Origin: a virus
Taxonomy: Duplodnaviria; Heunggongvirae; Uroviricota; Caudoviricetes
Length of the DNA: 3,146 nt
Direction: 5' to 3' (one strand)
IMG/VR virus record: IMGVR_UViG_2547132271_000011
Under the pieces are notes generated by a model, which made no database searches, was not told the DNA's origin, and was given only the letters and a program-made list of their open reading frames with translations. Made by a program: the position numbers and the translations under genes. Below are positions 1 through 3,146 of this stretch, piece after piece. How positions within the stretch are numbered: the stretch's first letter is position 1; every line of letters starts with the position of its first letter.

Positions 1-1083
1 ATGAAAAAATTAACAGTGGCAATTTCTGCTGTAGCTGCATCAGTACTGATGGCGATGTCTGCTCAGGCAGCTGAAATTTATAATAAAGACAGTAACAAGC
101 TGGATCTGTACGGGAAAGTTAATGCTAAGCACTACTTCTCCTCTAATGATGCAGATGATGGTGATACTACTTATGCCCGTCTTGGCTTCAAAGGTGAAAC
201 CCAAATCAACGATCAACTGACTGGTTTCGGTCAGTGGGAATATGAATTCAAAGGCAACCGCGCTGAATCTCAAGGTTCCTCCAAAGATAAAACCCGTCTT
301 GCCTTCGCTGGCCTGAAATTCGGTGACTACGGCTCCATCGATTACGGCCGTAACTACGGTGTAGCATACGACATCGGTGCGTGGACTGACGTCCTGCCAG
401 AATTCGGTGGTGACACTTGGACTCAAACCGACGTGTTCATGACTAAACGTGCAACTGGTGTTGCAACCTATCGTAACAACGACTTCTTTGGTCTGGTCGA
501 TGGCCTGAACTTTGCTGCTCAGTATCAGGGTAAAAATGACCGCACTGACGTAACTGAAGCCAATGGTGATGGTTTCGGTTTCTCCACTACTTATGAGTAT
601 GAAGGATTCGGCGTGGGTGCAACCTATGCTAAATCAGATCGCACTGACGGTCAGGTCGCCTATGGTAAGAGCAAATTCAATGCCTCCGGCAAAAATGCGG
701 AAGTATGGGCTGCAGGCCTGAAATATGATGCGAACAATATCTATCTGGCTACCACATATTCTGAAACTCAGAATATGACCGTTTTTGGTAATAACCATAT
801 TGCAAACAAAGCACAAAACTTTGAAGCAGTAGCACAATATCAGTTTGACTTCGGTCTGCGACCATCTGTTGCTTACCTTCAGTCAAAAGGTAAAGACCTT
901 GGTGTTCATGGTGACCGAGACTTAGTCAAGTATGTCGATGTCGGTGCTACTTACTACTTTAATAAAAACATGTCCACTTTTGTTGATTACAAAATCAACT
1001 TAATTGACGATAGTAAGTTTACCAAAACAGCTGGTATTGATACCGACGACATCGTCGCTGTAGGTCTGGTGTATCAGTTCTAA
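1..1083 (+). CDS. nmpC: Outer-membrane general porin precursor, OmpC/OmpF/PhoE superfamily, prophage-borne NmpC/Lc type (360 aa)
   Basis: Complete ORF from ATG at 1 to TAA at 1081-1083. Predicted signal peptide [23 protein letters not shown], then mature N-terminus [16 protein letters not shown] typical of enterobacterial trimeric porins. C-terminus GLVYQF ends in Phe, the beta-barrel OMP signature. Recognised from memory as NmpC/Lc-like; symbol is a best guess. No RBS or promoter visible because the window begins at the ATG. Confidence 0.92.
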
Positions 1084-1090
1084 TCTGATT

Positions 1091-1133
1091 ACGAAAAAGA
1101 TATGTTGCGGGAGGCTTTGCCTCCCCAACATAT
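1091..1133 (-). terminator. Rho-independent terminator for minus-strand transcripts (candidate tR'-like terminator of the late leader / Q readthrough)
   Basis: Imperfect inverted repeat 1100-1114 / 1120-1133 (core GGGAGG / CCTCCC, about 14 bp with one bulge, 5-nt loop). On the minus-strand transcript it is followed immediately by CTTTTTCGT (complement of 1091-1099). On the plus strand the hairpin is followed by TAAGTGGC, so it is not a canonical plus-strand terminator. Confidence 0.5.
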
Positions 1134-1159
1134 AAGTGGCTCCCTCAAGCCACTTCCTT

Positions 1160-1272
1160 TAGGAGCACAACCTTGCTTCTAACTATATAAACCTTCTGTT
1201 ATATATTACCCTTTATTTTTGGGGGCGTTGCAACGCCCCATTTTTAATAATTTTTAGTAAACAACTGGCATA
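1160..1272 (-). promoter_or_regulatory. Expected location of Q-dependent late promoter pR' and qut site with short late leader
   Basis: Positional inference only: in lambdoid phages pR'/qut lies directly downstream of Q and the leader ends at tR'. The region is AT-rich with several -10-like hexamers on the minus strand (TAATAT at about 1208-1203, TATATA at about 1188-1183) and a TTGCAA at the palindrome centre, but I could not assemble a convincing -35/-10 pair with 16-18 bp spacing. Confidence 0.3.
1222..1256 (+). terminator. Rho-independent terminator for plus-strand transcripts (likely 3' end of the porin mRNA, shielding Q from antisense readthrough)
   Basis: Perfect 18-bp palindrome GGGGCGTTGCAACGCCCC (1222-1239), GC-rich stem, followed on the plus strand by ATTTTTAATAATTTTT. 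On the minus strand the same hairpin is followed by A-rich sequence, so the function is orientation-specific. Confidence 0.55.
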
Positions 1273-1656
1273 TTAATTAGAGTTATTAACAACGATATCC
1301 ATCTCTAACCGGATATCTAATGCCATTAACATCCCTTCAATTATGCCCTCAGCCTTCTGTAACCTTTTCCCGATATAACCATCAGAACAGCAATGCTTAC
1401 CTGCCAGTGACATGAATGTCATACCGACTACATAATAATCTACTAATAAATCGTGCAAATCGCTGTTGTTCTTTTTCAGACGGGCCATGCCCCCGCAAAT
1501 AATCATCGCGTCATCGTCACAACATTGCGGGCGAGATTTTACTTTTGAAGTAATTAATCCCTTAAAACCGGCGGCAATGGACGACCAGGTCACATCTTCA
1601 TGATTATTAGCCGCCCACGCTCCCCAACGCTCAAGAACCATCTGAATATCACGCAT
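1273..1656 (-). CDS. quuD: Late-gene antitermination protein Q, DLP12 QuuD type (127 aa)
   Basis: ORF-track frame 1273..1671 trimmed to the ATG at 1656-1654, giving [24 protein letters not shown]..., recognised from memory as DLP12-type Q. GGAG at 1667-1664 lies 7 nt upstream of this ATG. The ORF-track start at 1671 is a TTG that adds 5 residues and has no RBS. Stop TAA at 1275-1273. Confidence 0.9.
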
Positions 1657-1741
1657 CAACTTACTCCACAAAAATCAGACCAGAACGCCAATTACAAGCA
1701 AAAATCAACAAAACAGTATTAGTTGATTGTTATCTCTGACT

Positions 1742-1879
1742 TCATACTCCTGCTCCTGTCAGGGTTTTGGCGTAATTCTTCAGTATTCGGTAATCGGTCA
1801 AAACAGAACCGGGGAAACGATATAAGCGCAGATGCCCCCAGCGGTGGCGAAGAAGTTCTGCCATATAAAACTCAAACAT
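1742..1879 (-). CDS. ylcG: Small prophage protein YlcG-like (45 aa), not in the supplied ORF track
   Basis: Manual minus-strand translation from ATG 1879-1877 gives [45 protein letters not shown], stop TGA at 1744-1742. The ATG overlaps the rusA stop (TGATG). The position between rusA and Q matches DLP12 ylcG. Identity is from memory and position, not a search. Confidence 0.65.
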   Translation of the reverse strand: MFEFYMAELLRHRWGHLRLYRFPGSVLTDYRILKNYAKTLTGAGV

Positions 1880-2241
1880 CATTCATTCCCCATTTCGGTG
1901 ATGGTCAGTTCCAGCCTCCCACCTTTGGTAACAGGCATCTTCACAACGCGGTAATCAACGACCTGAGCATCATCCAGCCAGAAACCTGCTTTAGTGAGTG
2001 CGTCAAAAGCGGCTTTTTGCAGATTATCCAGGTCACGGCGACGGCGATCCGGCATGTGGCACTCAATGCGGATTTTCACAGGCATAGCCAGGCCGATATC
2101 CAGCATTGCGTTTTTAATGATTCGGGCGACGTTATCGCGGTATGCCTGCCCCTCTGCGCTGACGTGCGTGCGCCCGCGATTATGGCGGTAATAGCGATTA
2201 TTGCTCGGAGGCCAGGGTAATGTGATGCTGTAGGTATTCAC
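1879..2241 (-). CDS. rusA: Crossover junction endodeoxyribonuclease RusA (Holliday junction resolvase), 120 aa
   Basis: Protein [47 protein letters not shown]...TITEMGNE recognised as RusA. Initiates at GTG 2241-2239, overlapping the ybcO stop (GTGA). A GAGGGGG purine run lies about 13 nt upstream. Stop TGA at 1881-1879. Confidence 0.95.
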
Positions 2242-2528
2242 GCCTTAATAACCCCCTCTTTCAGCCAGATAACCTGTGTTCTCGCCATACCTTCCAGCGC
2301 GCATTCTTTTGCATATGCAGCATCGACAAAATGTGTGCGGCGGTCGATTTCGTCGTGACAGGCAGAACAGGCAATGGTGGCAATAAGGTCTGGCGGTTTA
2401 ATACCGGTGCCGCACAATCCAGCCAGCCGGATATGTGCCAGTACTGACGTTTCAGGATTGCCATTACATACGCCAGGGATTCTTACCTGGCATTCCCGAC
2501 TACGCGCTGCTTTTCTCAAATCAGCCAT
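2238..2528 (-). CDS. ybcO: YbcO-like Cys-rich protein (DUF1364 family, putative zinc-binding nuclease), 96 aa
   Basis: ORF-track frame 2238..2567 trimmed to the ATG at 2528-2526, which is preceded by a strong SD (AAGGAGG at 2539-2533). Product [35 protein letters not shown]...[11 protein letters not shown]... matches the known 96-aa DLP12 YbcO from memory. The ORF-track start at 2567 is a TTG without an SD and would overlap ninE by about 47 nt. Confidence 0.88.
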
Positions 2529-2691
2529 GATTCCTCCTTGCTGCCAGTCGCAACCATTTTTTATCAACCAGGCTGGCGGTATATCCGAGCAGTGTTGGTA
2601 TTTCGGAAGGCTTCAGCTCCGGTTTACGCTTACGACGATTTGGTACTCTGTAGATGTGTCCGTTCATGACACGAATAAGCGGTGTAGCCAT
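2521..2691 (-). CDS. ninE: NinE-family small protein (56 aa), not in the supplied ORF track
   Basis: Manual minus-strand translation from ATG 2691-2689 gives [56 protein letters not shown], stop TGA at 2523-2521. The start overlaps the ybcN stop (TAATG) and the 3' end overlaps the ybcO SD and start. Position between ybcN and ybcO matches DLP12 ninE. Confidence 0.8.
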   Translation of the reverse strand: MATPLIRVMNGHIYRVPNRRKRKPELKPSEIPTLLGYTASLVDKKWLRLAARRNHG

Positions 2692-3146
2692 TACGCCTCC
2701 TGCTTGTCACGGAGCTGCTGGAACTCGCAGCTCTGCGGAATAGTCAGATGGCAACCAATATTCATCGCCCAGGCTTCAACCTTACACAGGAAGACATACA
2801 TCTCTCCGGTATCAAGATCGGAGGTATGGCGTAACGACTGGATAGTGGTGATATCACCGGTTACGACATCAACCAGGTCTTTGGTTTCATAACCGAGATA
2901 TGTGTGTTTGAGAGCATCTTTTACCCAAGCTGGAGTGGCGAACGTTTTACCCTTGCTGATGAGGTATTCACTGATTTCGCTGTACCACATGTGGCTGAGT
3001 GCATTCTGGGAAAGACTGCGTCTCTCGCGCCACGGTTTAAGCACCATGCGAAAGCATTTGCCGTTCTCCAGATAAGGCTGGATCTGCCGACCGATAGCGG
3101 TGAAGTTACCGCGATGCAATTTGATACCATCTTGTGGGAGGTTCAC
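2691..3146 (-). CDS. ybcN: YbcN (DLP12 prophage protein, NinB/Orf-like; reported DNA base-flipping protein), 151 aa
   Basis: ORF runs from the window edge (GTG at 3146-3144) to TAA at 2693-2691. The translation (first codon read as Met) MNLPQDGIKLHRGNFTAIGRQIQPYLENGKCFRMVLKPWRERRSLSQNALSHMW... matches the 151-aa length I remember for YbcN. The start sits exactly at the window edge, so no RBS can be checked and an upstream extension cannot be excluded. Confidence 0.8.
   Translation of the reverse strand: MNLPQDGIKLHRGNFTAIGRQIQPYLENGKCFRMVLKPWRERRSLSQNALSHMWYSEISEYLISKGKTFATPAWVKDALKHTYLGYETKDLVDVVTGDITTIQSLRHTSDLDTGEMYVFLCKVEAWAMNIGCHLTIPQSCEFQQLRDKQEA

Follow-up and report, generated by a model that had tools for sequence, protein, structure and literature searches.

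An intact, mosaic NmpC/Lc-type porin gene, a probable cargo gene of a DLP12-type Escherichia coli prophage

The prototype lysogenic-conversion porin is Lc of phage PA-2 (protein 2, GenBank J02580), a phage for which OmpC serves as the receptor. Its counterpart NmpC is encoded in the DLP12 (qsr') prophage of E. coli K-12; the two proteins differ at four positions. The MG1655 annotation gives nmpC as a pseudogene interrupted by IS5B, which leaves a 3' fragment of 58 bp. A further relative, OmpD, is encoded by a chromosomal core gene of Salmonella and is not known to be phage-borne.

The K-12 nmpC transcription start has been mapped by 5' RACE and its promoter, PnmpC, is active; deletion of positions -199..-1 abolishes the promoter's effect (PMC11677980). 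The same work reports that PnmpC is activated by CRP, repressed by OmpR, IHF and MprA and subject to sRNA control, and that expression of NmpC leads to higher colicin and phage sensitivity (PMC11677980). The nmpC mRNA of MG1655 is abundant and high relative to that of B strains (PMC3446290), and both nmpC copies of strain CFT073 are expressed as RNA and as protein, more so at 37°C (PMC12890032). An RNA, ipeX, has been described at the position of the nmpC 3' UTR (reviews PMC12197685, PMC5069750), and IpeX lowers OmpC and OmpF (reviews PMC12197685, PMC3617542, PMC5069750, PMC8065619).

Here, we report the analysis of a stretch of viral DNA of 3,146 nucleotides (the window), for which an earlier note had proposed an intact, prophage-borne porin moron. 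The window extends exactly from the porin ATG to the GTG start codon of ybcN, so that the porin promoter lies outside it. It is 100% identical to positions 10001-13146 of a 638-kb E. coli draft contig (L006, GCA_026539735.1), from which the promoter and the remainder of the prophage were read. The porin gene is very probably an undisrupted allele of a gene that lambdoid phages are known to carry under the names nmpC (DLP12), lc (PA-2) or 'ompD-like', present here as autonomous cargo, or a moron, of a DLP12-type E. coli prophage.

The porin gene and its relatives

The coding sequence and the parts of it that bear on pore function and surface exposure are as follows; loops are given by residue where their extent was taken from the strand order of the structure model described below.

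1-1083, plus strand: porin coding sequence of the NmpC/Lc/OmpD general type, 360 codons and TAA (ORF list, Pfam, OmpC structures, AlphaFold2, Foldseek, nr)
1-69, plus strand: signal peptide of 23 residues, cleaved before AEIYNK (mature PDB chains begin at query residue 24)
349-459, plus strand: constriction loop L3, residues 117-153, with PEFGGD and the acidic residues D130 and E134 (model secondary structure, invariant alignment columns)
residues 48-55 and 86-96: predicted extracellular loops L1 and L2
529-570, plus strand: predicted extracellular loop L4, residues 177-190
640-693, plus strand: predicted extracellular loop L5, residues 214-231
787-795, plus strand: predicted extracellular loop L6, residues 263-265
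895-915, plus strand: predicted extracellular loop L7, residues 299-305
1000-1050, plus strand: predicted extracellular loop L8, residues 334-350

The complete and uninterrupted frame, the signal peptide and the C-terminal Phe that the earlier note had read from the sequence were all recovered. The frame runs from ATG to TAA on the plus strand without an internal stop codon, and the Porin_1 profile (PF00267) matched residues 29-360 over all of its positions (1-337/337) with an E value of 9.8e-152 and a score of 505.6 bits, against a curated threshold of 23.7. Solved chains of OmpC, OmpK36, PhoE and OmpF aligned from their first to their last residue on query residues 24-360 (E ~1e-137). Since they align end to end, including those of OmpC, OmpF and PhoE against which a frameshift or truncation relative to functional porins was sought, the gene carries neither. 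Cleavage of the precursor was placed after AQA at residue 23 because the mature chains begin at residue 24, and the PA-2 lc record carries a sig_peptide annotation over the same 23 codons. The protein ends in ...VYQF, the terminal Phe being F360.

In an alignment with OmpC, OmpF, OmpD and Lc, the PEFGGD motif (P133-D138), the pore residues K39, R60, R99, R150, D130 and E134, and F360 occupied invariant columns; the six pore residues are equivalent to K16, R42, R82, R132, D113 and E117 of OmpF, respectively. From an alignment of 43 sequences, AlphaFold2 gave a model with 16 strands at moderate confidence (pTM 0.70, pLDDT 69.9), with a pLDDT below 50 in L3, and Foldseek superposed it on OmpC, OmpK36 and OmpF with TM scores of 0.83-0.88 and rmsd values of 2.5-2.9 Å. 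The full-length profile match, the 16-strand barrel, the constriction residues with PEFGGD, the Sec signal peptide and the C-terminal Phe are those of a general porin, and positions 1-1083 thus encode a full-length precursor of a 16-strand porin of the OmpC/OmpF family with every conserved pore and assembly feature.

For comparison with its nearest relatives, K-12 NmpC was reconstructed by removing IS5 and one copy of CTAA, which yielded a 365-codon frame; the IS5 disruption of the K-12 gene to which the earlier note had referred is therefore evident both from the IS5B split in MG1655 and from the frame restored on its removal. The window protein was 91% identical to this reconstruction, 90% to PA-2 Lc, ~78-80% to Salmonella OmpD (80% in the alignment in which the pore residues were invariant), 66% to K-12 OmpC and 61% to OmpF. 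K-12 nmpC occupies the same locus in the same orientation, with ybcN-ninE-ybcO-rusA-ylcG-quuD followed by the convergent nmpC and by essD. The proteins share 332 of 365 aligned columns, 5 of the 33 differing columns being gaps. The window protein is five residues shorter than K-12 NmpC (three in L4, two in L5) and is substituted in L4-L8, and whereas IS5 after codon 346 removes the last strand of the K-12 protein, the window copy is intact. At window positions 1018-1030, the CTAA target of the K-12 IS5 (…TTCACTAA|AGC…) is missing from the equivalent site (…TTTACCAAAACAGC…).

PA-2 Lc resembles the window porin in gene arrangement (Rz, ORF2, lc), in its signal peptide and in a CRP box at -129..-109, but matches it in 329 of 365 columns, has the other class of 3' half and departs from it in a small cluster of positions within nt 288-460. 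Salmonella enterica OmpD falls into the same length class (360-362 aa) and obtains the same NCBIfam subfamily score, but differs in its signal peptide and in loops L4-L8. OmpC, OmpF and PhoE (2J1N, 2XE2, 2OMF, 1PHO) share the fold, the pore architecture, 61-66% identity, the TM scores given above and the terminal Phe, but differ in locus and regulation, and L4 of OmpC is longer than that of the window porin.

Variation from other alleles had been expected in the surface loops, and it is there that it was found: 28 of the 33 columns that differ from K-12 NmpC fall in predicted loops, which make up 115 of the 337 mature residues (Fisher p = 3.6e-10). The two peptides singled out beforehand as loop segments coincide with the predicted extracellular loops L4 and L5, in columns that are variable or rich in indels.

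Mosaic structure of the gene

The window allele differs from classical NmpC and Lc almost only in L4-L8 because the last 586 bp of the gene belong to a second, anciently diverged class.

498-1083, plus strand: diverged 3' cassette of the porin gene, encoding L4-L8, with 77% nucleotide identity to K-12 nmpC

Over nt 1-497, 495 of 497 positions are identical to K-12 nmpC, against 77% over nt 498-1083. By Nei-Gojobori counts, dS relative to K-12 nmpC was 0.009 in codons 1-160, while codons 161-360 gave a pS of 0.71 and a dN of 0.09. Within the 3' half, dN in strands and turns was 0.02 and pS in the barrel strands was 0.63, a disparity that indicates strong purifying selection on the barrel. Judged from these counts, the 3' half is a different and old allele lineage joined by recombination to the remainder of the gene in a sharp mosaic.

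The same 3' half, at 100% identity over nt 498-1083, is present in the E. coli B lineage, in BLR(DE3), C43(DE3), C2566 and C3029. The nmpC gene of this lineage (BL21/BLR/C43) is accordingly of the window's allele class, but it is only 96.4% identical over the 5' 579 nt and, in the sequenced genomes matched, is split by an IS1, which in BLR(DE3) (L017) lies at window nt 571-579 with a 9-bp overlap. The other four matched B-lineage records are annotated likewise, with an IS1A transposase between two porin fragments. As K-12 and B are split by different elements, IS5 and IS1, nmpC has been disrupted independently in both laboratory lineages.

Among complete E. coli genomes, 837 records were at least 99% identical to the 3' class of the window and 899 to the Lc/K-12 class (~15-17% each). 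The 5' coding sequence, the promoter and the ipeX 3' UTR around the two classes are near-identical, whereas the synonymous sites of the classes themselves are saturated (pS ~0.7). We tentatively suggest, as a possibility that is rather less probable than its opposite, that nmpC is kept as a two-allele 'surface cassette' polymorphism in which the exposed half is reassorted by recombination while phages, colicins or immunity impose balancing or diversifying selection. Should this be true, the repeated IS knock-outs (IS5 in K-12, IS1 in B) would reflect a cost of nmpC expression.

Intact copies are common, as indicated by the number of contiguous copies in complete genomes and by the deposited protein itself. 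Of 5426 complete E. coli genomes, 3157 matched nt 1-1272 and 2221 (~40%) carried a contiguous copy in which at least 80% of the gene and 3' UTR was covered. NCBI nr and UniRef both list the exact 360-aa protein, named 'MULTISPECIES: porin OmpC [Escherichia]' (UPI0002BB67D1), from at least 19 contigs, and its 90%-identity cluster has 2741 members from E. coli and Shigella. Two unusual proteins were seen among the records. One of 364 aa (P0036) has the N-terminal third of OmpF fused in frame to the exact NmpC allele and represents an ompF/nmpC recombinant or else a misassembly; the other (P0001) is the window allele with a 47-residue internal tandem duplication.

Prophage setting and control regions

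The genes that adjoin the porin gene in the window all lie on the minus strand.

1273-1656, minus strand: quuD, late-gene antiterminator Q, 127 aa (Phage_antitermQ E = 1.7e-51; quuD annotation in matching genomes)
1742-1882, minus strand: ylcG, nin region (ORF; RefSeq annotation of a 98%-identical locus, L001)
1879-2241, minus strand: rusA (ORF; Pfam RusA; RefSeq annotation of L001)
2238-2528, minus strand: ybcO (ORF; Pfam YbcO; RefSeq annotation of L001)
2521-2691, minus strand: ninE (ORF; Pfam NinE; RefSeq annotation of L001)
2691-3146, minus strand: ybcN (ORF; RefSeq annotation of L001; weak Pfam NinB match)

The gene order is that of DLP12. The quuD product distantly matches the Q21 structure 6p18 (E = 1.7e-6), and quuD and the porin gene converge. 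Among complete E. coli genomes, the best match was 98.1% identical across the whole window and is annotated with 'ompC: porin OmpC', quuD, ylcG, rusA, ybcO, ninE and ybcN. On the draft contig and in seven other loci that encode the exact protein, a holin gene of the essD type is followed by the porin gene and then by Q; these loci include DLP12-like prophages (emrE, ybcK, ybcL, ybcM) as well as complete-looking lambdoid prophages (cI, cII, O, P, N). The porin gene is also present in 36 records of sequenced temperate coliphages, at no more than 97.1% identity over the gene and 3' region; the names given to it there are OmpD, outer membrane porin and NmpC precursor. The convergence with Q in the window and the position between Q and the holin gene on the draft contig, in the seven loci and in the phage genomes agree with the prophage origin proposed for the gene, and PHROG 410 matches the porin over its full length. 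The porin gene is an ordinary, already known NmpC/Lc gene of lambda-like prophages, located in the interval between Q and the lysis genes, and is not new.

At positions 1-1710 of the draft contig, a phage integrase gene abuts a head-decoration gene with no major capsid or tail genes between them, and for this reason the DLP12-like prophage may be defective, though it has decayed less than its K-12 counterpart.

A slot for cargo in general appears to lie downstream of Q. In phage IdasGreatGrand, which has a closely related Q, a lipocalin gene (L013 positions 2303-2827; Lipocalin_2, E = 1e-43) stands in the place of the porin gene and is likewise convergent with Q, and beside it lies a 2-thiouracil desulfurase/DUF1722 gene. 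When the boundaries of the moron were sought by comparison with this porin-less phage, the cargo was unrelated and no homologous flank was found. Phage 434B, a laboratory 434 derivative (OL657227; L015 positions 704-3000), contains the IS5-split K-12 nmpC within a 'region of 434 nonhomology', which suggests that recombination brought the DLP12 Q-nmpC-S segment into this phage.

Upstream of the porin gene, the sequence was checked for a promoter and for disruption by an IS, as the earlier note had advised. On the draft contig, a 572-bp interval separates essD from the porin ATG. It is identical to K-12 at 568 positions, with -196..-1 entirely identical, and contains no IS; none lies in the coding region, where the frame is uninterrupted, and the gene is thus not an IS-silenced pseudogene. 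Both CRP boxes annotated in the PA-2 record, including the one at -129..-109, are identical on the draft contig. A simple consensus scan found no sigma-70 site near consensus upstream of the porin gene, so that identity to K-12 is the sole basis on which the promoter is assigned. The absence of a consensus promoter is consistent with an activator-dependent one.

Downstream, the porin gene is followed by a structured region and a terminator.

1084-1250, plus strand: structured 3' UTR of 167 nt, corresponding in position to the ipeX RNA, with four stem-loops and the terminator (identity to K-12 and PA-2; fold)
1104-1134, both strands: long hairpin of 15 bp with bulges, the first ipeX stem-loop (folds of both strands)
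1222-1246, plus strand: intrinsic terminator of the porin transcript, GGGGCGT-TGCA-ACGCCCC followed by ATTTTTAATA (terminator scan; last hairpin of the fold)

The fold of the 3' UTR had a minimum free energy of -62.4 kcal/mol (z = -7.9), and the terminator scan reported the hairpin at 1222-1239 with its T-run. The 189-bp spacer between nmpC and quuD is identical to K-12 at 185 positions and the 3' region to PA-2 at 222 of 227; of the four differences from K-12 in the 3' UTR, three lie in unpaired hairpin loops and one replaces an A-U pair with G-U. The conserved 3' UTR and intrinsic terminator of the NmpC/Lc porins are accordingly both present. No Rfam family matched any part of the window (E ≤ 1), there being no curated ipeX family. 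On the minus strand, the hairpin at 1104-1134 is followed by CTTTTT and could also stop the quuD (Q) transcript.

With its own terminator at 1222-1246 in the window and a promoter assigned through the 100% identity of -196..-1 to the mapped K-12 PnmpC, the porin gene has both elements by which a moron is recognised, and the designation made in the earlier note was upheld.

The porin gene would also lie outside the late transcript of the prophage. Some 370-450 nt upstream of the porin start codon, on the minus strand of the draft contig (9632-9550), an 83-bp stretch shares 77% identity with the pR'-qut-first terminator region annotated in phage 933W, and this stretch is kept in K-12 and PA-2. 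The location of the 933W homologue, upstream of the porin ATG and on the other strand, suggests a late promoter on the far side of the porin gene; judged by the position of the homologue, the cargo unit of promoter, porin, ipeX and terminator would lie between Q and the late promoter and in the opposite direction. We had considered antisense, Q-dependent late transcription through the porin gene from just downstream of quuD, with the hairpin at 1104-1134 as tR', and rejected it because the 933W pR' homologue lies elsewhere; a scan found no promoter-like site just downstream of quuD. On this reading, ~1.9 kb would lie between Q and its qut site, with the porin cargo gene in between. In the 1986 PA-2 record, a 'CRP site' is annotated at -425..-405, where it overlaps the qut-like stretch.

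Expected function and alternative readings

The function of the window allele in lysogenic conversion is proposed from its homologues PA-2 Lc and NmpC. By analogy with them, a lysogen would transcribe the porin gene from its own CRP-activated promoter, with OmpR, IHF and MprA acting as repressors. The precursor would be exported by Sec and cleaved after AQA, and BAM would insert it through its C-terminal Phe signature to form a trimeric general-diffusion pore. The 3' UTR may be processed to IpeX, with less synthesis of OmpC and OmpF as a result. The phage porin would then partly replace the host porins and alter both permeability and the surface offered to phages and colicins as receptor. The purifying selection on the barrel and the recurrence of the exact protein in at least 19 contigs, in DLP12-like and complete lambdoid backgrounds, support the reading as a functional porin.

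It is unlikely, yet the most serious of the alternatives, that the porin is intact but effectively silent through OmpR, IHF, MprA, H-NS-like silencing and sRNAs such as RybB, with little effect on the phenotype of the lysogen. The nmpC gene of E. coli B, which has the 3' half of the window, is reportedly 'quiescent', a term that comes from the title of Prilipov et al. 1998 and from citations of that paper; an intact gene may for this reason be silent under laboratory conditions. The repression and sRNA control reported for PnmpC (PMC11677980) and the failure of the scan to detect a consensus promoter point in the same direction. Against silence, PnmpC gives detectable transcripts in K-12 (PMC11677980), MG1655 nmpC mRNA is high in comparison with B strains (PMC3446290), the NmpC proteins of CFT073 were detected and are up-regulated at 37°C (PMC12890032), and purifying selection on the barrel, which is strong, speaks for a protein in use. 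The IS1 split in the matched B-lineage genomes would by itself explain silence in those strains.

The chance that the gene is a host chromosomal porin, an orthologue of ompC or ompD that merely adjoins phage genes, is very slight. RefSeq does call the matching loci 'ompC: porin OmpC', and the name given by PGAP follows from the cutoff of the NCBIfam 'porin OmpC' model, which the window porin passes (523 bits against 484). However, this is a subfamily model to which Lc and Salmonella OmpD score the same as the window porin, whereas true OmpC scores 752; the identity to K-12 OmpC is only 66%, and in the prophages examined the gene always lies between Q and the holin gene. It is also carried in the 36 temperate-phage records, and PHROG 410 matches it over its full length. 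Still less probable, to the point of being negligible, is a cryptic pseudogene whose frame is intact and whose product is disabled by a missense change such as K149 in L3. Residue 149 does vary, being K in the window, Q in K-12 and G in Lc and most alleles, but this variation is found among functional relatives, R150 next to it is invariant, as is every constriction residue, and the identical protein recurs in several prophage backgrounds.

An intact, phage-borne NmpC/Lc-type porin thus remains the preferred reading. It brings no new biology and confirms a textbook case of lysogenic conversion, to which the two-class mosaic of the surface-exposed half is a mildly interesting addition. The 'porin OmpC' label of automatic pipelines hides an NmpC/Lc-type cargo gene of prophages, to which a regulatory 3' UTR is linked that may reduce the OmpC and OmpF of the host. 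Since both of their copies are disrupted by IS elements, K-12 and B are poor models for the effects of the intact porin, and strains with intact copies may differ in antibiotic permeability and in recognition by phages, colicins and antibodies.
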